64,000 bases of DNA from a virus (Duplodnaviria > Caudoviricetes): the IMG/VR virus record IMGVR_UViG_3300005670_000019. One strand, given 5' to 3'. The notes under the pieces are model-generated. The model saw only the letters and a list, made by a program, of their open reading frames with translations. It did not search any database and was not told where the DNA came from. A program made the translations under genes and the position numbers. Positions 16,254 through 63,068 of this stretch are shown here, piece by piece; the first letter of the stretch is position 1; the number at the start of each line of letters is the position of its first letter.

Positions 16254-16282
16254 TTGAGAAAAATGCCCAGGTGTGCTATCCT
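16254..16282 (+). promoter_or_regulatory. Sigma70-type promoter TTGAGA-N17-TATCCT
   Basis: TG-extended -10; ATG 16289 lies 6 nt downstream. Confidence 0.6.
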
Positions 16283-16288
16283 TGTTAC

Positions 16289-16807
16289 ATGAGGAGATTG
16301 CACATATTTGATTTTGATGATACCTTGGCGAAAACCTCGAACATTGTGCGTGTTCGGAAGGGTAATGGCTCAGTCATCGAACTAAATTCACAAGACTATC
16401 TCACTTATCAAAAAGAAGAAGAAGATATTTTTGATTTCACTGACTTTAGAGAGCCCCGCGATGCAGACAAGATTGATGAAATTGTAAACATCCTTGTACA
16501 GGCTGTAAAGAAAGATGGAATTAACTCCGTTGTCATTCTAACAGCGAGAACTACGGATGTGCCTGTAGTTCACTTTCTAAAACAACATGACCTTCCACCT
16601 GTGCAAATCATGCCTGTGGGAAGGGAGCATATGCATTCTCATCCTACAGATAAAGCCATTTGGATTTCGTGGGTTATCGAAAAGTTCAAAATAAATGAGG
16701 TCATCTTTTATGATGACCATCCAGGGAATATTGAAGCTGTAAAAAAGTTGTGTCACTCAAACACTAAGATTGTGACTCATCTCATCAAAACAAAATCGCC
16801 AATTTGA
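16289..16807 (+). CDS. HAD-superfamily phosphatase (Pnkp 3'-phosphatase-like)
   Basis: IFDFDDTL, ILTAR, K and FYDD: all four HAD motifs. Confidence 0.8.
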   Translation: MRRLHIFDFDDTLAKTSNIVRVRKGNGSVIELNSQDYLTYQKEEEDIFDFTDFREPRDADKIDEIVNILVQAVKKDGINSVVILTARTTDVPVVHFLKQHDLPPVQIMPVGREHMHSHPTDKAIWISWVIEKFKINEVIFYDDHPGNIEAVKKLCHSNTKIVTHLIKTKSPI

Positions 16808-18015: not shown

Positions 18016-18767
18016 GTCATTATTCTAGCGGATATGATACCTATTCCTCAGCTTTGTTGCCTGACCTGAACTTTGGAGAATATGAAATTGTTAGAGTTTC
18101 TCCAAAATATCTTCTCCTTTGTACAAAGGAAGGAAGTTGGTATGGTCAATCGTACAACCTCGAAAAAGAAGAGTTTGTAACTCTTCCAAAAGAACTTTCA
18201 GCAATCAGGTCGAAGCTCGGTGCGGACTATCAAATAATTGTTATCAAATCAGAAGAAGACCCAACACTGAGAGATTTAGCAAGTCTCAAATGGCAAAACA
18301 AATTCGTTGGAACAGTTTATGATTCTTACAGCATATTTTGGAGTCTGAAACGTGGCAACAGCCAACAGCAAGAAGTTCATGAACACATTTTAGAATATGT
18401 TCGTGAAAAAGCAAAGAAAGTTCAAAGAGAAGCTGCAAAACAAAAGCGTCTTGCAGATAAAGTCGAAGCAAATAGACTTGGGATTACTGTAAGTGAACTT
18501 CGTTTCCGTCGCAAATCAGCAAAAGTTGATCAGGTAAATGAAGTTGTAAGAGCACGACTTACAGCAGAGCTTTCACGCTCAATGAGTATTTGTGAAGCAA
18601 TGAGAAAAACAATTTCTCAACTTGAAAAAACTTGTGAAAAGTTGGAAACTGCTGATTGGAATGAACTTCAAGTTCGTTGGGACGATAAACTAAAAGAACA
18701 ATTACAAGCAGTTGAAAAACTACTTCCAAAAGTTTCCAAGTTGAAGAGTGAAAGAAAGAATAAATGA
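18012..18767 (+). CDS. Hypothetical coiled-coil protein (probable paralog of the previous gene)
   Basis: 251-aa ORF; ATGA overlaps on both sides. Confidence 0.75.
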   Translation: MSHYSSGYDTYSSALLPDLNFGEYEIVRVSPKYLLLCTKEGSWYGQSYNLEKEEFVTLPKELSAIRSKLGADYQIIVIKSEEDPTLRDLASLKWQNKFVGTVYDSYSIFWSLKRGNSQQQEVHEHILEYVREKAKKVQREAAKQKRLADKVEANRLGITVSELRFRRKSAKVDQVNEVVRARLTAELSRSMSICEAMRKTISQLEKTCEKLETADWNELQVRWDDKLKEQLQAVEKLLPKVSKLKSERKNK

Positions 18768-19591
18768 GTAAAACTGACAGGCTATCTCTCGGAGATAGAA
18801 TGAAATCTTATGAAAGAGTTTGGACACAAACTCTTCCTATGCGAATGCCTCTTATTATCCGTTTGGATGGCAAAGCTTTTCATTCCTATACGACTCATGC
18901 TGAGAAACCTTTTGATGATCACTTAATGAAGGTTCTCGATGAAACAACTCAGATCCTTATGAAAGAAATCTCTGGAGCGATGATTGCATACGTTCAGAGT
19001 GATGAAGTTTCAATTCTTGTAAACTCATATAGAAACCATGAGGAACAGCCATGGTTTGCAAATGAACTTCCAAAGATTCTTTCTGTTTCAGCCGGAATGA
19101 TGTCAGCTCATTTTACGGCTAAAAGCTATCAGATTTGGCAAAAGAACTCAGAAATGATTGAGTCAATCAAGAAGACATATCCCGAAGATCAAAGAAACGG
19201 AGTTCTTATTTCAGACCTTTATCGTCCCGCTGTTTTTGATTCTAGAGCATTTGTAATGCCAGAGAATGATGTTTCAAACTATTTTCTTTGGAGACAAAGA
19301 GACTGTATTCGAAACAGTGTCAATACCGTTGCGAGAGAATACTTTTCTCAAAAACAACTCTTCAAAAAGAGCACAGACGAAGTAAAGAAGATGCTCCTTG
19401 AGAAGGATGTTGATTTGGATGACCAAGAAGCTTGGGAGCCTTATTACACCAGAGGGCGTTGTATCTTTAGAACACCTTCTCAAATCTCAGACAATGTTTA
19501 TCGTAATGTTCTATCTGTTGATAGAAAAATCCCGGTCTTTTCAGAAAACCGGGATTACATAAACAGATTTCTTTCGATGAAAGATGAGTGA
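18764..19591 (+). CDS. thg1: tRNA-His guanylyltransferase / Thg1-like 3'-5' polymerase
   Basis: RMKSYE, IRLDGKAFH, YVQSDEVS, FDSRAF and YFLWRQRDC motifs. Confidence 0.92.
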   Translation: MSKTDRLSLGDRMKSYERVWTQTLPMRMPLIIRLDGKAFHSYTTHAEKPFDDHLMKVLDETTQILMKEISGAMIAYVQSDEVSILVNSYRNHEEQPWFANELPKILSVSAGMMSAHFTAKSYQIWQKNSEMIESIKKTYPEDQRNGVLISDLYRPAVFDSRAFVMPENDVSNYFLWRQRDCIRNSVNTVAREYFSQKQLFKKSTDEVKKMLLEKDVDLDDQEAWEPYYTRGRCIFRTPSQISDNVYRNVLSVDRKIPVFSENRDYINRFLSMKDE

Positions 19592-20550: not shown

Positions 20551-22359
20551 CTATCGTCTAAGGTAATAGTTGTTCCAAACTTGTTTATTCAAACCAAAAT
20601 CCACAAGAACAAGTTTTTCTTTTCCATTTCTCTTCACAACACCCCAAGAAGAAATTCTTGTAATGTCTCCATGAGTCATATCAAGGTCAGCCATAATTTG
20701 AACAATTGTTTTGAACGATTCATTCTCTGAAAGACTTGGATCAATTGTGCTATTACTTCCCCATCCATGAAGTCTATTGCTAATGACCTTCAAACTATCA
20801 AAGAAGACTTCCATTGGAAACCCAATCAAATTTGGAAAATCAGATGGCTTCGCTTTTCTTGCAAGTTCCATTTCTACCCACAAATTATCTTCATCATGGT
20901 CAAAGACTTTTGCGGTTATGACACCATCGCTATCATATTGGGAAACTTCAATCTCTAGCTCGTTTTGAGCTAAGCCTTTTTTATTTTTAGCTACCTTTAT
21001 AGCTGTTTGATCATCTGCAACAAAAACAACTCTGGAAGATCCAGCTCCAATACGTGCAAGATGTTTCATTGCATATCCAGTTTTCTGCGCATATGAAGGA
21101 AGAGATTTGAGTTTCTCAAGCGAGAAGCCTTCCGGATAGTTTGCTATCTCTTCAATGTCACCTTCACTTAGATCCAACTGCTCGTTGAGTCCATTTCCGA
21201 CAAGTGAAATACTGCTAGCTGGTATTGAATGTTTGATGGCAAGGTTAGCCGGAAGGTTGAACTTTGCTGCCGTCTCCAACTCTTTCGCTGCTGTTGGCTC
21301 TACGCCATCTTCTGGGTCAGAAATCAAGTCAGATAGCCTGACCTTGATAGCAATAACGGCATCAGATCCCTTTTCTTCTGCATACCACTGAGCACTCTCG
21401 GCATAGTTGGTCACATAGAGATATTTTGGGTTGCCTTGTTGAGAACCACGAAAACCAGAATAAGGTTGCCAACCATTTTTCAACATGTTTTCCGCTGATG
21501 AGCGCGTTGTTCCATGATAGACGGTAAGTTCCGGATCGCCGTCTTCTAGTTCTTCAAAAATAAGAGATTTCAACAACATGTTCTTCCCAACACTTTCCTC
21601 TAATTTCTTTTGAAGAATTTTCAGCATCTCATCTCTTTTGTTTTTGAGTTTTTGTCTTTGTTCTTCTATGTCTTTATTTCGAAGGTTATTCAAAATCCTT
21701 TGCATTTCTGGATTTCTATGAGAAACAACTCTGTGAAGATCAGGATGTGCCAATCTCAACATCTTTTCAAAATCAACCTTTTGAAGACTTTCAATCATTT
21801 TTTGAATTTCTTCTTTTGAAAGAAGTTTGATGGACGAAGCAAGTTTTTCTGGTTCTAACTTTAGAATGACATTGGCGTCAAACATTCTTGGAGATGAGGG
21901 TTTCATTCCAATTGTTGGATGATTGAATTGAGGACCTTGAATTTCTTTTTTGTGGTCTGTTCTCTTTCCAATGATCTTTAGATTTTTCATCAAATCTTCT
22001 GGGATGAATGTCTCTTCATCCCAAAAGAAAGCTCCATGCAGGTTCTTGACACCCGCAGCTTGAAGCTCATCAAAACGCTTCCAGTGCCTCTCTACGGCTT
22101 GTTGATAATCTTCCATAGGAAGACTGAGGGTATAAAGAGTTATGGTTTTGAACGAACCCTGGGGGCGTTTGTGATAGGGTAAATCACGTCTTCCTGGGGC
22201 TCTGTCTTTTGAACTTGCCCATCCAACCCAAGAGTTTTGCATTGCTGATGGTTTTGAAGAAACAAAAAGACCCTTCATGCCAAACTTTGGTGAATAACGT
22301 GGACGAAGAACATTCACGTTCTCTGGTGAAGCATGATAAAGGGTCTTTAGCCTTGGCAT
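20551..22359 (-). CDS. Multidomain protein: two ART-like domains plus kinase-like domain
   Basis: LYHAS..GLFVS..EE; VYHGTT..LYVT; IGAGSSRVVF..IK..GD....SWG..LVDFG; modules separated by LEE/IFEE/LNE. Confidence 0.7.
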   Translation of the reverse strand: MPRLKTLYHASPENVNVLRPRYSPKFGMKGLFVSSKPSAMQNSWVGWASSKDRAPGRRDLPYHKRPQGSFKTITLYTLSLPMEDYQQAVERHWKRFDELQAAGVKNLHGAFFWDEETFIPEDLMKNLKIIGKRTDHKKEIQGPQFNHPTIGMKPSSPRMFDANVILKLEPEKLASSIKLLSKEEIQKMIESLQKVDFEKMLRLAHPDLHRVVSHRNPEMQRILNNLRNKDIEEQRQKLKNKRDEMLKILQKKLEESVGKNMLLKSLIFEELEDGDPELTVYHGTTRSSAENMLKNGWQPYSGFRGSQQGNPKYLYVTNYAESAQWYAEEKGSDAVIAIKVRLSDLISDPEDGVEPTAAKELETAAKFNLPANLAIKHSIPASSISLVGNGLNEQLDLSEGDIEEIANYPEGFSLEKLKSLPSYAQKTGYAMKHLARIGAGSSRVVFVADDQTAIKVAKNKKGLAQNELEIEVSQYDSDGVITAKVFDHDEDNLWVEMELARKAKPSDFPNLIGFPMEVFFDSLKVISNRLHGWGSNSTIDPSLSENESFKTIVQIMADLDMTHGDITRISSWGVVKRNGKEKLVLVDFGLNKQVWNNYYLRR

Positions 22360-35321: not shown

Positions 35322-35876
35322 ATGCCTTTGAAAAAGCTAAATGTTGGACAAGTTGTCTACATTCTTTCAAATAAGGCACAAGCCGTTCTCCCTGCTCTTG
35401 TCATCAAAGAACATAGAACAATCCACCTTGATGCAGAAGAAGTAACTTGGACAGTTCAATACGGACCTCCAGGGAAACAAAGAGTAATCGAGTCACACAA
35501 AGTTGATGGAGAACTCTTTGGAACTCTCGAAGAGGTTCGTGACGTAATGAACCTAAGATTTCAGGAATTCGTTCAAAGTTTGATTGAGAATGCAGCTTCT
35601 TTGCAAAATAAATGGTATCCAAAAACACCATCAGCACGAAGCCAAAATTCAACAACAGACAGGCTTGATCCAGAGGCTATGATTCAAGAGATTGAGGGCA
35701 CTTCTCCACCACAGTCTCATCCAGTTCAACGTCCGATGCCAAACCCAAAAAGGCAAAGGATTTTTGATAGAGAAGAGTTGAAACAAGCTCTTCAAGCTGA
35801 CGATGATTTTGATGGCGAGTTTGAAGAAAACGAAAAAATGAAACTAAGACCTGATGGGTCAATTGAAGTGGAGTGA
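35322..35876 (+). CDS. Hypothetical protein (possible SH3-like N domain)
   Basis: LNVGQVVYIL start; AGGTG RBS. Confidence 0.7.
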   Translation: MPLKKLNVGQVVYILSNKAQAVLPALVIKEHRTIHLDAEEVTWTVQYGPPGKQRVIESHKVDGELFGTLEEVRDVMNLRFQEFVQSLIENAASLQNKWYPKTPSARSQNSTTDRLDPEAMIQEIEGTSPPQSHPVQRPMPNPKRQRIFDREELKQALQADDDFDGEFEENEKMKLRPDGSIEVE

Positions 35877-35883
35877 ACAAGTA

Positions 35884-37599
35884 ATGAAAAAGAAAGTTGT
35901 TTTTGGGCATGAAGGTCATAAAAAGCTTCTAGATGGAGCCACCATTCTTGCTCAAGCTGTAAGATCAACCATGGGTCCATCAGGTCATAATGTCATTATT
36001 GACAATGAAAATGGTTCTCCTTACATCACAAAAGATGGAGTCACCGTTGCTCGTTCAATCAAATTAAAAGACAAGCTCGAAAGTGTTGGTGCTGAACTTA
36101 TAAAAGAGGTCGCTTCCAAAACAAATGAGATGGCAGGAGATGGAACAACTTCATCAACTGTTTTAGCTCATTCCATTCTAGAGAATGGATTCAAACAAAT
36201 GTCTTCAGGACGTTCAGCTATTGAATTGAAAAAAGGAATCGACCTGGCAAAAGAAGAGGCTCTGTCATTTTTGATGGGATCAGCTATCAAATGTCGTGAT
36301 GCAAAAGATATCAAAAACGTTGGAACCATTTCTGCAAATGGTGATGATGAAATCGGAAAACTCTTAGCTGAAGCAATCACTTCAGTTGGACCAAATGGAC
36401 TAGTTTCAATTGAGTTAGCTAAATCAACTCATACAACACTTGATTTGGCTGAGGGAATGCAAGTTGATGCCGGATATTGTTCTCCATATTTTGTAACAAA
36501 CGCTGAAAAGAGCGTTTGTGAATTTGAGAATCCTTACGTACTGCTTACAACCAACAACATTTCAGCAAACAAAGACATTGTTTCAATCCTTGAAAGAATT
36601 CTTGAAACAGATCGACCTGTTGTGATCTTTGCTGATAGTGTTGAGGGTGAGGCTCTTCACACTTTGATTGCAAATAAGATGAAGGGCATTCTAAAAGTGT
36701 GTGCAGTGAAGACTCCAAGTTATGGAGAATATCGTATTGATATTCTCAATGACATTAGAAGTCTTACTGGTGGCGAAGTCATTGGTTCTGCCTCAACAAC
36801 TTCATTGGCAAATATGAAACTTGAACATCTTGGCTCTGCCAAGAAGATTGTTGTTGGAAAAAATGGAACAACTTTCATTGCTCACGACGACAAGGCAGAT
36901 AGTGTAAAAGAACGTGTTGATTTGCTCCGAACACAACTCGACAATCCAAATCTTGATGAATTGAGTTTGAACAAACTTCGTTCAAGACTTGCAAAGTTAT
37001 CAGGTGGTGTGGCTGTTATTCGAGTTGGCGGCTCTACAGAAGTTGAAATCTTGGAAAAGAAAGACCGAGTAGAGGATGCAGTGAATGCAACACAAGCTGC
37101 TGCGCAAGAAGGAATAGTTTCCGGAGGTGGATGTGCTTTGTTTTATACGGCTCAACATCTAAAGAAATATCCTGCTCTGTTGAGAAATTTGGGAAAGAAT
37201 GATGATTTGATTGCTGGAGTTGAAATCGTCATTTCTGCATGTGAGGCTCCAATGAAACAGATTGTTGAAAACACCGGAGCTTCATTTGAGATCGTAAAAC
37301 ACAATCTTATTGAGAATCAAAAGAAATATGTTTGGCTTGATACAACACATGCAGCTACAGTTGAAAAGCTTCTTGCTGTAAAAGATGCAGACAAAATTCT
37401 TGATTCAGAGAAAGATGCAATTACTGCTTCAATGCGTTATGGATATGATGCAGCAACTCATAAGTTTGTCGATATGATTGATGTTGGGATTATCGATCCG
37501 GTCAAAGTTACAAGATATGCTTTAGAACATGCCGCCTCAATTGTCGGTTTGATGCTTACTTGTAACTCAATAATTGTAAGTGAAGAAGAGGAAGAGTGA
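35884..37599 (+). CDS. groEL: GroEL-like chaperonin
   Basis: [48 protein letters not shown] and GIIDP motifs. Confidence 0.96.
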
Positions 37600-38386: not shown

Positions 38387-38407
38387 ACATTCAATAGATA
38401 AATGAGA

Positions 38408-38431
38408 AAAAGGAGCCGAATGGCTCCTTTT
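38408..38431. terminator. Bidirectional intrinsic terminator
   Basis: AAAAGGAGCC-GAAT-GGCTCCTTTT between convergent genes. Confidence 0.85.
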
Positions 38432-38461
38432 CTTTTTGGTTGTTTGTGATGTGTTTGTGAA

Positions 38462-38842
38462 TTATTGTCCGTCTACAAAAGACCTAATACAGCTTGCAAT
38501 CGCATCAAAAGTCTTTTCAGCTTCCTCTCGAAGTTTCCTATTTGCAAGAACCTTGTAAGGATTGGAGTCAATCCTTGTAAAGACCTCCAAAGAAAGTTCA
38601 TAGAGTTCATCCACGACTTCTTCCAAAGTTCCCTCCATTTCAAAAACATTCAAAGCCCTGTTTTTTAGGTCAGCAAAGAAAGGCAATGGAAGATCGGGGT
38701 TCTCAAACTCTTTGAGAGCAGCCGCATTTGAAGCAAGAACCGTATTCAAGTTCTTTCCAATCGAAGTAACTTCTTTCAACTTCATATGAATTTGTTTTTG
38801 TGTTACCGGATCATAGGCATAAATCGTATCAGTAATTTTCAT
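38462..38842 (-). CDS. Hypothetical protein
   Basis: Last gene of the operon; GAGGG RBS. Confidence 0.7.
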   Translation of the reverse strand: MKITDTIYAYDPVTQKQIHMKLKEVTSIGKNLNTVLASNAAALKEFENPDLPLPFFADLKNRALNVFEMEGTLEEVVDELYELSLEVFTRIDSNPYKVLANRKLREEAEKTFDAIASCIRSFVDGQ

Positions 38843-39128
38843 TTTTCCCTCTCAAACTTTTGAGAAATTTGGCAAACCACAAAGGATATATCAAAGTCGC
38901 TTCAAGTCCAAAGATGCGAAAGTAGAGTGCGTCCTTGTCGAGGTAGCCATCAACAGACCAATAGTTTTCGTCAACAAATTCATCCCATGCCCACTTTCGA
39001 ATGATTGTAATCAAACTTCCACCTGGAAGGTGCTGACAGAGAATGTACCCATTCTTTTTCTTCCATTCCTTGAGTTCGAGCTTTTCTTCATCACTCTCCA
39101 AATCATCAAAATCGTATTCAAAGGGCAT
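38829..39128 (-). CDS. Hypothetical protein
   Basis: GGAG RBS; overlaps the ligase 3' end. Confidence 0.65.
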   Translation of the reverse strand: MPFEYDFDDLESDEEKLELKEWKKKNGYILCQHLPGGSLITIIRKWAWDEFVDENYWSVDGYLDKDALYFRIFGLEATLIYPLWFAKFLKSLRGKNENY

Positions 39129-39726
39129 CGCATTTCTCCCCATAAAGATTTTTCACGTGCGCTTTCCAGTCATTGCTTTTGTGTTTGAACATCAAAAGTG
39201 GTTTCTGTCTTCCTCCGAAGGCTTTTCCAACAATTCCTTCATAGGTCATTCCAGAAATTTTCCTTTCTTCAACATCACGAAGGAAAATTTGGTTCACAAA
39301 ACCATGATGGATCAAGGTTGGAGTTAGAACTTGTCCGGAAAAAGTCTTCAAAAACTCTTTAGGATCAAGCATTCCCTGCTTGAAAACGTCAACATCCAAA
39401 AGATAAACTCTCTTGTTATCTTCGTTTCCTTCTTCGTGAACCCCAGCAAAAGAATTGTCCCCAAAGAATTCAAAAAACAATGTGCATTGTTGAATTCGTA
39501 GATCATTCAGACACTTCTCAAGTTTTGAACTTTGAGCAAGAATAAGTTCTTTTGCTAAAGCAACAGCACTACTCTCACTCAAAAGAACTTTCCTCGATCC
39601 GAACTTATGAAAACCTTTCTTTCGGTCCCATTCAGCTCGAATATTAGAACCATCAATTTTGTCAAAGACATAATATGGTCTAGAAGTATCAAAACCGTCT
39701 ACTTGAATAGATGGATATTGTTTCAT
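39118..39726 (-). CDS. RNA ligase-like nucleotidyltransferase (compact Rnl2-like)
   Basis: Motif I DKIDGSN, III FFEFFG, IV EGIV and V FKHK. Confidence 0.78.
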   Translation of the reverse strand: MKQYPSIQVDGFDTSRPYYVFDKIDGSNIRAEWDRKKGFHKFGSRKVLLSESSAVALAKELILAQSSKLEKCLNDLRIQQCTLFFEFFGDNSFAGVHEEGNEDNKRVYLLDVDVFKQGMLDPKEFLKTFSGQVLTPTLIHHGFVNQIFLRDVEERKISGMTYEGIVGKAFGGRQKPLLMFKHKSNDWKAHVKNLYGEKCDAL

Positions 39727-40241
39727 AGTTTTCTTTCTTTTTTCAGTCTCCAATCATACAAAGCCATGCCAACTGCCACAGCCAGATTGAAGTCATTGTG
39801 CAAGCCCCACATTGGAATATAGACAATGTCTGCGGCTTTTTCAAGAAGATGCTGAGGAATCCCTTCCTTTTCGCATCCGAATAACAGAATAGGGTCCTGT
39901 GGATATTGGAAATACTGTAGGTCTTTGCCATCAAGTCCTTCTCGCTTCTCAAAAGCAATGATAGGACGCTTATCAGCAAGCCTCAAAAATTCTTCGGAAT
40001 TGACCTTGAACAAGTTTTCCCATTTATGGGTTCCCATTGTTGCCTTCTTGTAAAATCCGCCCGGAATATCAACAAGAAATATTTCCTTCGCTAAGAAGGA
40101 ATGGGAAGTTCTAATGATAGAACCCATATTGAAGTAGTTTGTACTTCCCCACACAGCCACAGAGAAGGGCATTCTTACTTCATTCAAGGTTTCTCGAATT
40201 TCTTCTTTTGAAAGTCCGTCTAAGGTCGGTGCCTGTGTCAT
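39723..40241 (-). CDS. SPOUT (SpoU/TrmH/TrmL-like) RNA 2'-O-methyltransferase
   Basis: NMGSIIRT, LLFGCEKEGIP and YIPM.G...FNLAVA; minimal catalytic domain. Confidence 0.88.
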   Translation of the reverse strand: MTQAPTLDGLSKEEIRETLNEVRMPFSVAVWGSTNYFNMGSIIRTSHSFLAKEIFLVDIPGGFYKKATMGTHKWENLFKVNSEEFLRLADKRPIIAFEKREGLDGKDLQYFQYPQDPILLFGCEKEGIPQHLLEKAADIVYIPMWGLHNDFNLAVAVGMALYDWRLKKERKL

Positions 40242-40618
40242 TTTACTTCCAGAATTTGACCCCTCAAAGAGAAAGGATCAGAAATAGGTTGCCAATTTGT
40301 AAGTTCATTGCTGTGAAATGGTTTTCCTCCACCATTTCGATTCACAGCAATTGTGATATGCTTTATCTTGTTTGTTGAGGGAGTTACTCCCTCAACTCCG
40401 ACAGCAAGAACCCTGTCGTCTATTGCCCAGGAAGAAACTATAAGAGTTTCAAATGTCCCCACAGCTTTTGGAAAACGAGCAAGAGGACCATTGGAAATAT
40501 TTCCAATGTTAATTGTCATATGATGAGCAATAACCTCCCAACCCTCGGGGATAAGATGCTTCATCTTTTCGACAAGTTTTAGATGAGACTTATCGTTTAG
40601 AACCAACGCTGTGTACAT
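40238..40618 (-). CDS. 2H phosphoesterase (cyclic phosphodiesterase-like)
   Basis: Two HxT motifs (HHMTI, KHITI) and KP..SN. Confidence 0.8.
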   Translation of the reverse strand: MYTALVLNDKSHLKLVEKMKHLIPEGWEVIAHHMTINIGNISNGPLARFPKAVGTFETLIVSSWAIDDRVLAVGVEGVTPSTNKIKHITIAVNRNGGGKPFHSNELTNWQPISDPFSLRGQILEVK

Positions 40619-40638
40619 TCCAATTCCTCTCTCAAAAG

Positions 40639-40667
40639 ATTATGGCACATTCCTGATGGATTTTCAA
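40639..40667 (-). promoter_or_regulatory. Sigma70-type promoter TTGAAA-N17-CATAAT within an inverted repeat
   Basis: Member of the repeated promoter family; arms ATGGCACATT (40642-40651) and AATGTGCCAT (40670-40679). Confidence 0.75.
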
Positions 40668-40700
40668 GAAATGTGCCATGGTTGGTTGATTATGGTGTGA

Positions 40701-41387
40701 TCAATCGCAGTAAAGACTGCGAAGAAGTTTTCTGTCATTATCTGTCATACGCATTGTACCAACAGAATTGTCTGTGATTTCTGGAAACATCAGAGACATT
40801 TCAAAATCATCATGTCCAAGTCCAAGAACATGTCCAAGTTCATGCTCTAAAGTAAGAGCCATCAAATCAATTGTTGGAACCCCATAAAGAGTTAGAGAAG
40901 CTTTTTGTTCTCCATCTTCAAGAAAGTGGGTGACGCTTCCACCCTCACCGTGACCTTCACCAACAGGAATTGCGCCCTCAAGATTTACGAAAACGCGAGC
41001 TTCTGCTCTTTTGGTTGTTTCACGAAGAACTGTGCATCCAACTTGACTGTTTGTATTTCTTACAGCAACACTCAAAGCACGACGTCTATCTCTGTTTCCA
41101 TTTTCAGCAAAGACAGGAAGAGGCAATGTATCCATTGTCCAAAGAATATCTTCACCCTCTGTTTGAGAATAACTTACAACACGGTCGCCAGACCATGTTG
41201 CTTTCAACAATCCAACTTCTTCATGTTTGAGGATGCCAAGAACAACAAAGAAAAGAGCCAGAACAGTCATTGCGATGACAATTCCAACCATTACTCGGTA
41301 AGACTTTACACTCTTTTTTTCTTCTTTGGTCTTCACTTTTGGTTCAAGTCCCAGGCGGTCTTCTAAATCTTTCATGTCTTTGATCAT
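40701..41387 (-). CDS. Membrane-anchored metzincin (matrixin-like) metalloprotease
   Basis: One TM helix; HELGHVLGLGH and Met-turn SLMFP. Confidence 0.88.
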   Translation of the reverse strand: MIKDMKDLEDRLGLEPKVKTKEEKKSVKSYRVMVGIVIAMTVLALFFVVLGILKHEEVGLLKATWSGDRVVSYSQTEGEDILWTMDTLPLPVFAENGNRDRRRALSVAVRNTNSQVGCTVLRETTKRAEARVFVNLEGAIPVGEGHGEGGSVTHFLEDGEQKASLTLYGVPTIDLMALTLEHELGHVLGLGHDDFEMSLMFPEITDNSVGTMRMTDNDRKLLRSLYCD

Positions 41388-41421: not shown

Positions 41422-41673
41422 TCATTCTTCTGAAAGATTTGCTTCCAACTTATCAAGCTCTTGATGAAAGAGCTCAAGTTCTTCAAATCCATGTTCAATT
41501 TCGCACTCAATCCAAAGAAGATAAAGATCATCCTTCCTTAGATTGAAATCCGGACAAATATAATCCGGGCTTTGATCTTTCATTGGAGCGAACCATTCTT
41601 CACTTGTCACCCCATTTTTGATCAAAGCCAAAATTACTTTTGCTGGTTCCGTTAGATGTTCGTCTTTTTCCAT
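41422..41673 (-). CDS. Hypothetical protein
   Basis: 83-aa ORF in the co-directional cluster. Confidence 0.55.
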   Translation of the reverse strand: MEKDEHLTEPAKVILALIKNGVTSEEWFAPMKDQSPDYICPDFNLRKDDLYLLWIECEIEHGFEELELFHQELDKLEANLSEE

Positions 41674-42101
41674 AGATCCATCACGCCAGTGAGGTATACA
41701 AAAGATTTGTTGTACTTCATGAGACGAGCGTGGTCCTTCTCGGACAGACCCTTCAAGCGAGTAATGTCGCTGTTGTCTCGAAGGTCCTCCAACTTTACCA
41801 AGGTTGCATCCCGACTGGTTCCAATCTTTCGGATGTAGACCTCGTAACTATCACCCTTCTTGTGGGTGAGGAGGTCAAGAGCATCAGTCACGCGAGAAGA
41901 AAATCCCATCTTGGTCAGGTCTTCGAGCGTAACATCACTATCCTCCACAACGTCATGGAGTACAGCAATACTCATGAGTTCTTCATCATCCGAGCGAAGG
42001 CGCATCATTAGACGCAAAGGATGAAGGATGTAAGGCTTCCCGCCCTTATCCCTCTGGTTTTCATGAACCTTCGAAGCTAGAGCAATGGCAGTACCAAGCA
42101 T
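41652..42101 (-). CDS. HD-domain RelA/SpoT-type hydrolase (small alarmone hydrolase-like)
   Basis: HENQRDKGGKPYILHP, AVLHDVVED and VKLEDLRDN motifs. Confidence 0.85.
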   Translation of the reverse strand: MLGTAIALASKVHENQRDKGGKPYILHPLRLMMRLRSDDEELMSIAVLHDVVEDSDVTLEDLTKMGFSSRVTDALDLLTHKKGDSYEVYIRKIGTSRDATLVKLEDLRDNSDITRLKGLSEKDHARLMKYNKSFVYLTGVMDLWKKTNI

Positions 42102-46076: not shown

Positions 46077-47177
46077 TCAGTTATATTCCGTCCCATCCTT
46101 ACGCGTCAAATAATCTCCAGAAACACTCTTGAGTTGCAAGCGATTTCCCGGAAGACCTTCGGCACAAGTTTCCACCATTGGACGAAGAATTACGCCCTCA
46201 CGAATATGAGACTTCTTACCAGAATACGTCTCATATCCATCAGTAAGTTCGTAAAGCTTTTCCTTGGTGAAAGGACCACGATAAAGGACCGGAACTCTTG
46301 TAAGTTCCAGAACTTCACAAAAACGGTCAAGTTCATCACTCGAAAGGTAGAAACCTTCTCGGTTGTCACCGACGAAGACATCGAAAACACGGAAATCAAT
46401 CTGATCTCCAGTCATTCCGTACTTGAGGTCTTGTACACCAGACCCGAAAGTTTCTCCAAGCACGAAAATTCTATCTCCTCCATTCAGGAAACTTTCACGA
46501 ACTTCATCGCTCAACAGAAACCACTTTTCAGCAAGATTGAGCTTTCGGGCAATCCGCCAATAAAGGTTATTCTTGTTGGCTTCATTGTTCTTGAGAGCAA
46601 GACCCTTCGCAGCCAAACCCTTTGAAGAAACAAAGGTATTTCCAATGTCAGGATGTTCCCACGCCGGGGGCATAATACCGATCATTGTCCAAGTGCCATG
46701 AAGCTTTTCCGTCATAACAACTTGTTCGTTTTCGGAAAAAAGCTCTGGATACTTCTTGAAGTTTTCGACATCATACTTGACGGTTCGATGCCCTCCAACG
46801 TGAGCAACCTCGCCAGCCATAGATGCAGGCACAGTTGGTTCCCACTTTGTAATCCCAAGTTCGTCCGCAACGTTTTGTCCGAGACTCCAATGCGGACGAG
46901 CGGGATACACAAGCCCCTGACTCAGAACACCACGAAGCTTGATTGCCTTTACTCTGTCCTTGTTGGACCCGGACAACTTTCCGTCAACGTTGATATCCTG
47001 TTGAATGGACAGTGGAACGAGCGACTGCTCCGGAATATAGGCAACCAAGTCACCAGACTTGTACTTTCCCTTCGGGACAACGCAAAGATACTCTCCAACT
47101 TGAGCAAGCTCAAGAGTATCAGCATTTTGGTGAGGCTTAATTTGAACCTCAACTACTTCGACAGAAAATGAAGACAT
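46077..47177 (-). CDS. RNA ligase, DRB0094 family
   Basis: N-terminal PH.NAD.LE..LRG.LSQGL; TEKLHGT, GE.FG, FDV, VP.LY.G, REG and LK..S.DYL motifs. Confidence 0.9.
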   Translation of the reverse strand: MSSFSVEVVEVQIKPHQNADTLELAQVGEYLCVVPKGKYKSGDLVAYIPEQSLVPLSIQQDINVDGKLSGSNKDRVKAIKLRGVLSQGLVYPARPHWSLGQNVADELGITKWEPTVPASMAGEVAHVGGHRTVKYDVENFKKYPELFSENEQVVMTEKLHGTWTMIGIMPPAWEHPDIGNTFVSSKGLAAKGLALKNNEANKNNLYWRIARKLNLAEKWFLLSDEVRESFLNGGDRIFVLGETFGSGVQDLKYGMTGDQIDFRVFDVFVGDNREGFYLSSDELDRFCEVLELTRVPVLYRGPFTKEKLYELTDGYETYSGKKSHIREGVILRPMVETCAEGLPGNRLQLKSVSGDYLTRKDGTEYN

Positions 47178-53255: not shown

Positions 53256-53638
53256 TGGTGGACACGACGGGGAATTGAACCCCGTGTCCAAAAAAACCTT
53301 AGAACTTCTTTTACGTTGCCTATGTAGTTTCCGCTTTTGCTGAGGAACTTTCGTTCGACTGCCAGGAAGCTCAGCGCATCTACCAACTGTCCTGTTTTCT
53401 TTACCCAAATCTCGTTCTGTAGTTAATGGTAAAGTGGTTCACTACAAAACCAGTCTTCTAAAATGATGCAACAAGAACTACGAAGACTTCTCATGCTTGT
53501 CACACCTCTTACTCAAGCGGCAAGAGGAAGGTATGCGTTTTCTGCATTTGTTTTTGAACACAGTATTTGATTGGTTATGTTCGCCCAATACAACGTGGAT
53601 ACATTCCTTGTGTTTCTCTGTCGAAACCTGTCATGCCC
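53256..53638 (-). ncRNA. ssrA: tmRNA
   Basis: 5' GGGCATGACAGGTTTCGAC; 3' T-arm CGGGG-TTCAATT-CCCCG then CGTGTCC-ACCA; acceptor stem with G3.U; tag frame 53545-53513 encodes AENAYLPLAA*; 383 nt. Confidence 0.95.
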
Positions 53639-60354: not shown

Positions 60355-61131
60355 TTACATTCCTGCTGTAATTTGTCTCCATCGCTCTAGAAGCATCTTT
60401 GCATATATCGTACTTGATACTCCATAGTTTCCTAGTGCATATGCATCGTTTACTTCAACAAGAAGAGTTTTTCCGTCCGAAACGCCAACATCCAGGCTAT
60501 AAGCCACGATCGATTCATGGTCGTTCATGTTTTGAACCATGTTTTCGACAACTTCCCTATCAGGCACAAGAAATGGATTTCCATTGTAGTGCTTGATTGC
60601 TTCAAGCCGTCCATTCAAAATGTAGCAACGATATTCAGTTTCAAACTTGACTGGAGTTGAAATCCAAACAGGAAAATCTCCATCAATAGAGCCGAGCGTT
60701 ATGAGGTCTTTGAAAGACCGGAATACTTTTCCTGTCCAACTTTTTTGAGGAACGGGCTTGATAAAGAGCGGGTTTGGAAACCCATTCTTTTCATCTTCTT
60801 GACCGAGCAATTTCCATGCTTTACTAAAGGTCGTTTTTTGGACTTTTCTTCCAAGAAAGGAACGCAAACATTTTGGATAGTCAAATGGTTCGGGTGGGAT
60901 TTTTCCTTGTTGTTCAATTGCTAGTCGAACAACAGGAATGTTGCCGACAAAAAGATCGCCCTCATTTATTTTCAGTTTTTGCTGGAGAATATCAGAAACC
61001 AGAAAAGGTTTCCATTGATGCCCAAGGTCAATTAAACCTTCAAGGGCTGCATAAATATTTCTATTTAGAGGCAGCCCTTTGTCCGAAAACTGAATATATG
61101 CGATTGGATCATTGCCAGTCATAGGTGACAT
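60355..61131 (-). CDS. ATP-grasp domain protein (DUF4343/R2K-like)
   Basis: DYP..L..FLGR, LFIKP...K, EYRCYI, SLDVG and LVEVND motifs. Confidence 0.82.
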   Translation of the reverse strand: MSPMTGNDPIAYIQFSDKGLPLNRNIYAALEGLIDLGHQWKPFLVSDILQQKLKINEGDLFVGNIPVVRLAIEQQGKIPPEPFDYPKCLRSFLGRKVQKTTFSKAWKLLGQEDEKNGFPNPLFIKPVPQKSWTGKVFRSFKDLITLGSIDGDFPVWISTPVKFETEYRCYILNGRLEAIKHYNGNPFLVPDREVVENMVQNMNDHESIVAYSLDVGVSDGKTLLVEVNDAYALGNYGVSSTIYAKMLLERWRQITAGM

Positions 61132-62260: not shown

Positions 62261-62902
62261 TCAGTCTCTTTCACTAAAACCGTTGAACTTCACAGGCTTA
62301 TTTAGCCAGTGTTCGTCAGTTTGAACGTGCTTTGGACGAACCCACTTTGCACAAAAAACTCCGAAGTTTTCATACGAAAACCTCTCACTTCGACGAACAA
62401 CATAACCCTCTTGCTTAGAAAGGTCAAGTTTTTCATGAAGCGTCATCATCGTGGTTTCATCCCACAATCCCCGATAAAGAACAGGAACGTGCTGGAGATC
62501 AAGCAACGAACACCATTCCACGGTTTCGTCCCATGAAAGACACTCGTTCTTCTCATTCCAGATCGAGAAGACCATGAAGAAGCTCGGAAGCTTTTCGTAT
62601 TCGATGGAATGAACAGCGGCAATATTCTCGCCACAAACTCGCCAACCTTCCGGAATGTCCTTTGCTACACGAGCGTGCAGGCGTCGGACGAAGGTGCGTG
62701 AAGGATGCTTTGCAAGCGTTTCAACAGCGCGTGCATGAAGATGGTCGTGGTAAAGCGAAGTATTTTCGCCATCCATCTTTTCCGTTACCACCACGTCCTG
62801 ACCAACAAAATGAGAAAGGTCGTAAAGAAACCGATCATCACTTTGCGTCCCTGGCGACCAAGGAACGTGATAGGTTCGTGGATATTTTACTGAGACTGTC
62901 AT
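62261..62902 (-). CDS. RNA ligase family protein
   Basis: KYPRTYH.PWSPG..DD, TEKMDGEN, GEN, EGYVVR and AKWVR motifs. Confidence 0.88.
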   Translation of the reverse strand: MTVSVKYPRTYHVPWSPGTQSDDRFLYDLSHFVGQDVVVTEKMDGENTSLYHDHLHARAVETLAKHPSRTFVRRLHARVAKDIPEGWRVCGENIAAVHSIEYEKLPSFFMVFSIWNEKNECLSWDETVEWCSLLDLQHVPVLYRGLWDETTMMTLHEKLDLSKQEGYVVRRSERFSYENFGVFCAKWVRPKHVQTDEHWLNKPVKFNGFSERD

Positions 62903-63068
62903 TGTTTTATCCACTTGAAAAAACAAACCAAACCCTGACCAATCAGGGTTCGAATTCGAACGGCATCATCTATACCAAAAGCGTTTGGAAAATCCAAAGG
63001 ATGCGAATGCATCCGATACTGATTTCGGATCCTCCAAAGTTTCTTTTGGTTTGGAATGTGCGTTTTCA

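Follow-up and report, generated by a model that had tools for sequence, protein, structure and literature searches.

A lineage-restricted phage operon predicted to encode a minimal 2H phosphoesterase, a TrmH-like SPOUT methyltransferase and a bare-domain RNA ligase

Introduction

Many bacterial defence systems cleave tRNA, and phages are known to counter them in only a few ways, RNA repair among them. On the minus strand of a 64,000-nucleotide (nt) stretch of viral DNA (Duplodnaviria; Caudoviricetes; IMG/VR record IMGVR_UViG_3300005670_000019), the whole of which is referred to here as the window, genes for a 2H phosphoesterase (open reading frame 1, ORF1), a SPOUT-type ribose 2'-O-methyltransferase (ORF2) and an ATP-dependent RNA ligase (ORF3) lie in tandem, followed by two orphan genes (ORF4 and ORF5). 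The locus raises the question of whether the methyltransferase takes part in RNA repair. In an earlier note, made from the sequence alone, the three enzymes were proposed to protect tRNA from host anticodon nucleases as a functional analogue of the bacterial Pnkp-Hen1 system, built on a SPOUT enzyme.

The comparisons reported here suggest that the operon is probably not a new 'repair-and-immunise' machine. The reading towards which we lean is that of a lineage-specific accessory operon, in which the 2H enzyme and the ligase would form a heal-and-seal pair and would be accompanied by an independent TrmH-like tRNA methylase. The three enzyme assignments of the earlier note were right (PF00588 and PF09414 above cut-off, the 2H enzyme by structure), and the layout that it described was found on the minus strand in full, with a promoter-like site, the genes in the order 2H-SPOUT-ligase, two overlapping unknown genes and a terminator.

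Assignment of the three enzymes

ORF1 (40238-40618, minus strand) encodes a 126-amino-acid (aa) protein that was assigned, from its fold and its His-x-Thr motifs, as a minimal 2H phosphoesterase of the CNPase/Trl1-CPD type. It scored 22.4 bits against PF08302 (tRNA_lig_CPD; E = 9.4e-5), just below the cut-off of 23, and matched phrog_36523; a precomputed PF08302 match was present in about a quarter of its homologues. The family comprised 67 relatives, and conservation and the structural model were based on 46 sequences. The motifs are HHMT at residues 32-35 and HIT at residues 87-89, where H32, H33 and T35 never vary within this set and H87 and T89 each show at least 90% conservation. Because the Pfam score fell just short, the 2H identity was settled by structure comparison. 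The AlphaFold2 model (predicted local distance difference test, pLDDT, 97.4) was aligned by VIA-align to the catalytic domain of mouse CNPase (2xmi) with Z = 13.0 and a root-mean-square deviation of 2.3 Å over 124 of the 126 residues, followed by phage BCSR5 phosphodiesterase (Z = 7.4), Acb1 (7t27, Z = 7.2) and LigT-like proteins (Z = 6.3-6.8). Foldseek matches included CNPase and the Trl1 KIN-CPD structure 6u05, and only 2H enzymes stood at the top of both structure searches. A 2H-family profile run against PDB sequences returned noise only (Myb, ROR-gamma; E > 0.009). On the predicted structure, ORF1 is a member of the 2H phosphoesterase superfamily and a stripped-down enzyme of the CNPase/Trl1-CPD branch, not of the LigT, Acb1, AKAP7 or Usb1 type. 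An assignment as an Acb1-type nuclease acting against CBASS (cyclic-oligonucleotide-based antiphage signalling system) was ranked lower (Z 7.2 vs. 13.0).

The two His-x-Thr motifs are shared with vertebrate CNPase and with the tRNA ligase Trl1/AtRNL (LIG-KIN-CPD) of fungi and plants, which belong to the same 2H branch. The 2H domain of Trl1-CPD and CNPase measures about 210-250 aa, whereas ORF1 has 126 aa; as a near-minimal enzyme of this type, it would extend an otherwise eukaryote-centred branch to phages. Characterised CNPase/Trl1-CPD enzymes open a 2',3'-cyclic phosphate to 3'-OH,2'-PO4, as described in passages of two papers (PMC6379707, PMC7145591). By family membership alone, ORF1 should likewise leave a 2'-phosphate, which would block a Hen1-style methylation of the same 2'-oxygen.

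ORF2 (39723-40241, minus strand; 172 aa) matched PF00588 (SpoU_methylase) at 3.8e-20 (72.9 bits vs. a cut-off of 29.7), and N38, R44, E124, G127 and N152 were invariant across 32 sequences of its family. In a phmmer search it aligned to Thermus TrmH (1v2x) at 2.8e-10 over residues 14-165, N-terminal helix included, with R44 on the catalytic Arg of TrmH. The best full-length sequence relatives were TrmH enzymes (Thermus 1v2x, Aquifex 1zjr) and the TARBP1 domain (2ha8), which are of similar size, have their catalytic Arg and three motif residues (Asn, Glu, Asn) in common with ORF2 and, like it, carry no extra RNA-binding domain; ORF2 differs from TrmH in being phage-encoded and only about 25-30% identical. 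When the profile of the 32-member family was searched against PDB, four Gm18 (2'-O-methylguanosine 18) methyltransferases led the list (1.2e-20 to 3.9e-15), namely the Aquifex and Thermus enzymes, a third TrmH and then the human TARBP1 domain, followed by TrmL (wobble position; 2e-11 to 1e-9) and rRNA methyltransferases (about 1e-8), so that the Gm18 enzymes led TrmL and the rRNA enzymes by 4 to 9 orders of magnitude. Judged by these profile matches, ORF2 is a SpoU/TrmH-family SPOUT methyltransferase with all three conserved motifs, and G18 in the D-loop of tRNA is its most likely target. It was filed as 'TrmH-like' rather than as TrmH because its scores lie below equivalog level (29.8 bits vs. 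227 for NF008295 TrmH, 37.1 vs. 190.6 for TIGR00185 TrmL, 41.9 vs. 160 for TIGR00186 RlmB).

ORF3 (39118-39726, minus strand; 202 aa from ATG 39726) matched PF09414 at 1e-6 (29.4 bits vs. a cut-off of 27) and the RNA ligase family phrog_548 at 1.3e-11. Its motif I is KIDGSN, and K23, D25, G26, S27, F85, E86, S92, A94, G95, E163, G164, K168, K181 and K183 were invariant among 37 homologues, residues that satisfy ligase motifs I (KxDGxN), III, IIIa, IV (EGxxxK) and V (KxK). With the model (pLDDT 92.1), Foldseek returned T4 Rnl2, TbREL1, NgrRnl and T4 Rnl1 at 2e-7 to 5e-6, and Trl1-LIG as well; these matches were about equal and covered the nucleotidyltransferase domains only (template modelling score by target 0.34-0.54). 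The protein stops just past motif V with one helix, and in the model and its structural matches none of the family-specific accessory domains of Rnl1-Rnl5 or Trl1-LIG was found (C-terminal domain of Rnl1, Rnl2, Rnl3 or Trl1, or N-terminal OB domain of Rnl5). A phmmer search of ORF3 against PDB gave no match, and a profile of its family gave marginal matches only. The model describes an ATP-dependent RNA ligase reduced to a bare nucleotidyltransferase domain, without the C-terminal domain of Trl1 and no closer to Trl1-LIG than to Rnl1, Rnl2 or Rnl5. The ligase family is large, with more than 900 relatives, and occurs in huge phages. In one homologue, a 601-aa fusion protein (L087:4001-5806), an AAA ATPase domain follows the ligase at the C-terminus.

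Gene neighbourhoods in related phages

For the survey of linkage, the 2H, SPOUT and ligase genes were each used as a separate anchor. Five phages form a clade in the ligase tree (support 100/100; shape (L016,(window,(L013,(L006,L012)))), midpoint-rooted), and in this clade the locus stands beside a GroES-like gene and a gene for a 137-aa protein. The gene order is 2H-SPOUT-ligase-ORF4-ORF5 in the window and L013, and 2H-203aa-SPOUT-90aa-ligase in L016; in L006/L007 and L012 it is 2H-ligase-ORF4-ORF5 plus a cRec-like gene, and SPOUT is absent. Hence the synteny that the earlier note had suggested searching for exists, in three related phages (window, L013 and L016), but it is missing from L006 and L012, and most SPOUT homologues lie elsewhere. 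Because the midpoint-rooted ligase tree nests L006 and L012 inside the clade, the simplest history would be one in which SPOUT was present in the ancestral operon and was lost once, in the L006/L012 branch. Gene gain and loss mark the stretch from the M10 peptidase gene to GroES, with examples in the genes for the 203-aa and 90-aa proteins of L016 and in the cRec-like gene of L006. The cRec-like gene lies at the end of the operon (L006:6648-7091, L012:6654-7097) and encodes a 147-aa protein with a weak match to cREC_REC, a cyclic-phosphate-processing receiver domain (E 2.9e-5, just under the cut-off).

The 2H and ligase genes were kept together in all five phages of the clade. Beyond it, a mini-2H gene was found about 4 kilobases (kb) from a different PF09414 ligase in L008-L010, and near a DNA-ligase-like gene and RlaP in L014. 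No mini-2H gene lay within 4 kb of the ligase in any of 80 IMG/VR loci of the ligase family (L027-L106). A different small 2H protein (2H-SAK-like, with HISI and HLTI motifs) is encoded upstream of the ligase in 17 of these 80 loci, often accompanied by a His_Phos_1 phosphatase gene. Since two unrelated kinds of 2H enzyme recur near the same ligase family, there is good comparative support for a real heal-and-seal partnership of 2H enzyme and ligase, in which the 2H types would have replaced each other by analogous gene displacement.

Further upstream neighbours of the ligase in the 80 loci were genes for an HNH endonuclease (16 loci), the His_Phos_1 phosphatase (15) and GroES/Cpn10 (14); example loci of recurrent neighbours are L096:1059-1571, L064:1811-2500 and L096:2935-3267. 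In L008-L010, from relatives of 300-510 kb, the PF09414 RNA ligase and mini-2H genes are separated by a gene for a family A DNA polymerase (L008/L009:799-3837, L010:958-4174), with a LAGLIDADG homing endonuclease either inserted in the polymerase gene or adjoining it; a tRNA synthetase gene of the TyrRS/TrpRS class follows about 1.5-2 kb downstream.

The SPOUT gene was distributed differently. It was found within 5 kb of a ligase of this family in five of about 15 homologue lineages (window, L013, L016, L031 and L045, at 0.4-2.3 kb in the last two) and was located with a 2H gene in three. In L003/L095 the distance to the ligase is 9 kb, and the remaining lineages have SPOUT elsewhere: about two thirds carry it away from any ligase, mostly beside tRNA genes and a gene for translation initiation factor 1 (IF-1). 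In two phage records the 2H gene lies far from SPOUT, at a distance of 42 kb in G003 and of about 270 kb in G004. The commonest SPOUT neighbour is a phage IF-1 homologue (PF01176, 5e-11 to 7e-13), directly upstream in at least six huge-phage lineages (L003:4074-4364, L031:615-887, L045:890-1168; about 100-500 nt upstream of SPOUT in L111/L119 and L114-L120). Genes for tRNA (Pro, Met, Gly, Arg) stand just ahead of the IF-1-SPOUT pair in L114-L120. The window gave no IF-1 match. As seen from these neighbourhoods, the SPOUT gene is an autonomous gene that is not tied to repair genes, and its pairing with IF-1 and tRNA genes provides a separate lead on how huge phages may tune translation.

Proposed function and alternatives

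The pathway most in keeping with these results, and the reading towards which we lean, would run as follows. ORF1 would open the 2',3'-cyclic phosphate left on tRNA by transesterifying ribotoxins, a kinase encoded elsewhere (by phage or host) would phosphorylate the 5'-OH, and ORF3 would reseal the break; a 2'-phosphate, if any, would be removed by another enzyme or tolerated. ORF2 would 2'-O-methylate intact tRNA (of phage, host or both), most likely at G18, and leave the repair junction untouched. Its position between the repair genes would reflect inherited synteny and a common tRNA theme, not an obligatory three-step pathway. The RNA (tRNA) repair theme put forward in the earlier note is a reasonable one: the window encodes two more RNA ligases, a full Rnl5/DRB0094-type enzyme with N-terminal OB domain (46077-47177, minus strand; TIGR02306, 6e-71) and a 221-aa PF09414 protein (62261-62926, minus strand; 8e-33), as well as a Thg1-like 3'-5' nucleotidyltransferase (18764-19591, plus strand; PF04446, 4e-27) and a tmRNA.

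Trl1/AtRNL offers the closest chemical parallel, since it too would combine an ATP-dependent RNA ligase with the conversion of a cyclic phosphate to 2'-PO4/3'-OH before sealing. Trl1/AtRNL is one polypeptide, whereas the phage proteins are separate and small, and Trl1 has a GTP-dependent kinase module and a Tpt1 partner, neither of which was found for the phage operon. The T4 Pnkp-Rnl1 response to the PrrC anticodon nuclease is likewise a phage-encoded heal-and-seal defence of the tRNA pool, in which healing is by a HAD phosphatase-kinase that yields a 2',3'-diol, in contrast to the CNPase-type 2H enzyme of the window. Pnkp-Hen1 and Pnkp1-Rnl-Hen1 (PMC3675462, PMC4411300), which couple repair to protection against renewed cutting, offer the nearest parallel in concept, and with them the operon has in common that ligase, healing phosphoesterase and ribose 2'-O-methyltransferase are encoded together. 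Hen1, however, has a Rossmann fold and methylates the terminal ribose once a metallophosphatase has generated a 2',3'-diol, whereas the phage operon has a knotted SPOUT/TrmH-type methylase, a 2H healer expected to leave a 2'-phosphate, and no kinase; its methylase-repair linkage is moreover confined to one small lineage. Because the defining kinase-phosphatase and the Rossmann-fold methylase are absent, the operon is, by gene content, not a member of the Pnkp-Hen1 system. The idea of a SPOUT-based analogue of that system fares poorly on the Gm18-like profile, the expected 2'-phosphate, the kinase, phosphatase and Tpt1 that were not found in the operon or in the window ORFs scanned, and the lineage-restricted triplet. 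Among the outcomes that the earlier note had named as refuting it are unconserved linkage and a methylation site unrelated to cleavage sites; the evidence leans that way, as far as homology can tell. For jumbo phages in general, end-healing by 2H enzymes beside ATP-grasp RNA ligases has already been put forward in a review (PMC7824862), in which no mention of a SpoU/SPOUT methylase in repair contexts was found. The combination may be new: the earlier note knew of no description, and no published SPOUT gene in a phage RNA-repair operon was found in a search that did not cover the main survey of RNA-repair neighbourhoods.

Several observations weigh against the pathway outlined above, in which ORF2 acts apart from the other two enzymes. 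SPOUT is translationally coupled on both sides and was retained in the operon while the 2H proteins diverged (44-59% identical), and it is the best conserved operon protein (73-87%). At one locus of L098 (4001-6864, and the same in L100), the final base of a gene for a same-family ligase is also the first base of a distantly related second SpoU gene (PF00588, 5.5e-19); a 161-aa ORF, an Hsp20 gene and a calcineurin-like metallophosphatase come next, and the whole locus is embedded among 12 arrayed tRNA genes. This independent SpoU-ligase pair suggests that the linkage is more than accidental. The preference of ORF2 for G18 is read from homology only, and every NCBIfam equivalog cut-off was missed. 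A 5' kinase was not found, with no convincing Walker A motif in the window and no Pfam match in the ORFs scanned. Neither four related phage records nor the window ORFs scanned with Pfam yielded a Tpt1/KptA match (PF01885); a Trl1-type junction would keep its 2'-phosphate. Pfam searches likewise gave no kinase or phosphatase in the operon or the neighbouring ORFs scanned, and the heal-and-seal pathway is incomplete as seen because no 5' kinase was detected in the operon or in the scanned window ORFs; an AAA_33 kinase is encoded elsewhere in related phages. Two candidates for the missing partners were rejected: the ORF at 20551-22359, considered as a Tpt1-like ADP-ribosyltransferase plus kinase, for which Pfam and PDB searches gave nothing, and the ORF at 16271-16807, considered as a HAD phosphatase, which had only faint HAD matches (E 0.04-0.13).

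Since SPOUT was retained in the operon and an independent SpoU-ligase pair exists in L098, a looser form of protection, in which methylation shields tRNA while the 2H-ligase pair repairs it, deserves attention as a minority prospect. Put more broadly, SPOUT may have been recruited as the protective arm of a repair-and-immunise strategy, acting pre-emptively or at the healed end as a non-homologous counterpart of Hen1, which we regard as unlikely though by no means negligible. The pre-emptive form is a rather unlikely two-layer counter-defence: ORF2 would 2'-O-methylate intact tRNA where a host tRNA nuclease strikes, whether in the anticodon loop or, should the nuclease cut there, in the D-loop, and remove the 2'-OH nucleophile, and ORF1 and ORF3 would mend tRNA that had already been cut. 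That 2'-O-methylation stops transesterifying RNases is established chemistry, and Pnkp-Hen1 relies on it (PMC4411300). SPOUT is kept, ATGA-coupled, in the 2H-ligase operon of three diverged phages and lies close to the ligase in L031 and L045, and the second SpoU type stands behind the same ligase family in L098/L100; yet the ORF2 profile clearly favours Gm18-type enzymes over the wobble enzyme TrmL. Cleavage 3' of G18 is not known from any nuclease of bacterial defence. Most SPOUT homologues, moreover, stand with IF-1 and tRNA genes away from repair genes, and the L006/L012 operon does without SPOUT. The alternative at the healed end is a true Hen1 analogue, in which SPOUT would methylate the 2'-OH of the 3'-terminal nucleotide after healing and make the ligated junction uncuttable. 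The coupled order 2H-SPOUT-ligase, recurring as a triplet in L013 and L016, mirrors heal-methylate-seal, but we hold this version very improbable: a CNPase-type 3'-OH,2'-PO4 product (described in passages of PMC6379707 and PMC7145591) occupies the very oxygen to be methylated, neither the scanned window ORFs nor the four related records gave a 2'-phosphatase or Tpt1, and the Pnkp kinase and phosphatase modules are absent. In addition, SPOUT aligns over its full length with TrmH, which recognises folded tRNA, and the ligase has no SPOUT beside it in L006/L012, nor in about 75 of the 80 other loci. A related possibility is that a CNPase-type 2H enzyme and a ligase working without Tpt1 deliberately leave a 2'-phosphate at the junction, which would itself block recleavage.

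The other alternatives detach one of the genes from tRNA. The mini-2H enzyme might hydrolyse 2',3'-cyclic nucleoside monophosphates or, like Acb1, immune signalling nucleotides instead of RNA ends, and the operon would then be a set of mixed accessory genes, adjacent without a shared pathway. CNPase does act on free 2',3'-cyclic nucleotides, Acb1 and the BCSR5 phosphodiesterase are the next-best structures, the 80 IMG/VR loci lack a mini-2H gene within 4 kb of the ligase, and the region from the M10 peptidase to GroES is one of gene gain and loss. We consider this distinctly unlikely, as the CNPase match far exceeds that of Acb1, a mini-2H gene stood near some ligase in every context examined, and a different 2H gene occupies the equivalent place near the same ligase family in 17 loci. 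Still harder to credit, and about as improbable as the Hen1 analogue, is that SPOUT acts on rRNA and reprogrammes or protects host ribosomes. Such a role would suit the six or more lineages in which an IF-1 homologue immediately precedes SPOUT, and the best NCBIfam E-value is that of the RlmB catalytic domain (7.6e-11, far below cut-off). ORF2, however, does not have the N-terminal L30e-like RNA-binding domain of RlmB and Tsr and matches their C-terminal domain only; its profile favours Gm18 enzymes by more than 10 orders of magnitude, and tRNA genes flank many SPOUT homologues. If the methylase does cooperate with the repair pair, repair combined with immunisation would have been invented twice, the second time independently and with a knotted SPOUT enzyme, and 2'-O-methylation would gain a function in phage-host conflict.

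Operon layout and other genes of the window

A sigma-70-like promoter candidate (TTGAAA-17 nt-CATAAT, TG-extended upstream; 40639-40667, minus strand), recognised by consensus match only, is followed downstream by a Shine-Dalgarno ribosome-binding site, GAGAGAGGA, ahead of ORF1. The ATGA overlaps that the earlier note had reported are both real, at 40241-40238 (ORF1/ORF2) and 39726-39723 (ORF2/ORF3). Such overlaps are frequent among unrelated adjacent genes of phage gene arrays. The claim of one promoter stands in part: the candidate site is present, but sigma-70-like hexamer matches were not enriched over shuffled sequence (8 observed vs. 7.4 expected), and the SPOUT gene itself contains another match of the same quality (39844-39816). 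A single transcription unit from ORF1 to ORF5 is likely, and a single promoter is only plausible because promoter-like hexamers occur at the shuffled frequency and one lies within ORF2.

ORF4 (38829-39128, minus strand; 99 aa) starts at ATG 39128, with an 11-nt overlap with the ligase stop, or at the in-frame alternative ATG 39143. No Pfam, PHROG, NCBIfam or PDB relatives were found for it, and an exhaustive search of 1.84 billion representatives gave just 4 clusters; the gene lies downstream of the ligase in four of the five related phages. Complex prediction of ORF4 with the ligase, as its missing accessory domain, scored 0.00, with the fold of the partner uncertain, and counts neither for nor against such a role. 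ORF5 (38462-38842, minus strand; 126 aa, predicted helical) overlaps ORF4 by 14 nt; it too had no Pfam, PHROG, NCBIfam or PDB relatives and is weakly conserved in the related operons (25-35% identity). The operon ends at a strong bidirectional intrinsic terminator hairpin (38407-38432; 11-bp stem with 5 G-C pairs, T-runs on both strands), shared between convergent operons.

The source of the window is a large (roughly 300-kb) T4-like phage; a Gp23-type capsid gene, a Gp20 portal gene, two sheath-like genes and a GroEL gene (35854-37599) are present. Searched at the DNA level, the INPHARED phages included no close relative, the single match being of 75 nt to a 635-kb uncultured phage. Immediately upstream of the operon, a 228-aa metalloprotease of M10/matrixin-like type, hydrophobic in a segment near its N-terminus (40701-41387, minus strand), and a 149-aa protein with a SpoT/RelA-type HD hydrolase domain (41652-42101, minus strand; phrog_990, 1e-51; TIGR00691, 9e-15 over the hydrolase N-terminus) are encoded, both with about 80% identity in L006 and L012. 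Farther away, a 258-aa R2K-clade ATP-grasp protein (60355-61131, minus strand; PF18299, 1.3e-37) lies beside a DUF7448 protein, and the tmRNA is encoded at 53256-53638 (minus strand), with the tag peptide AENAYLPLAA as predicted by ARAGORN.

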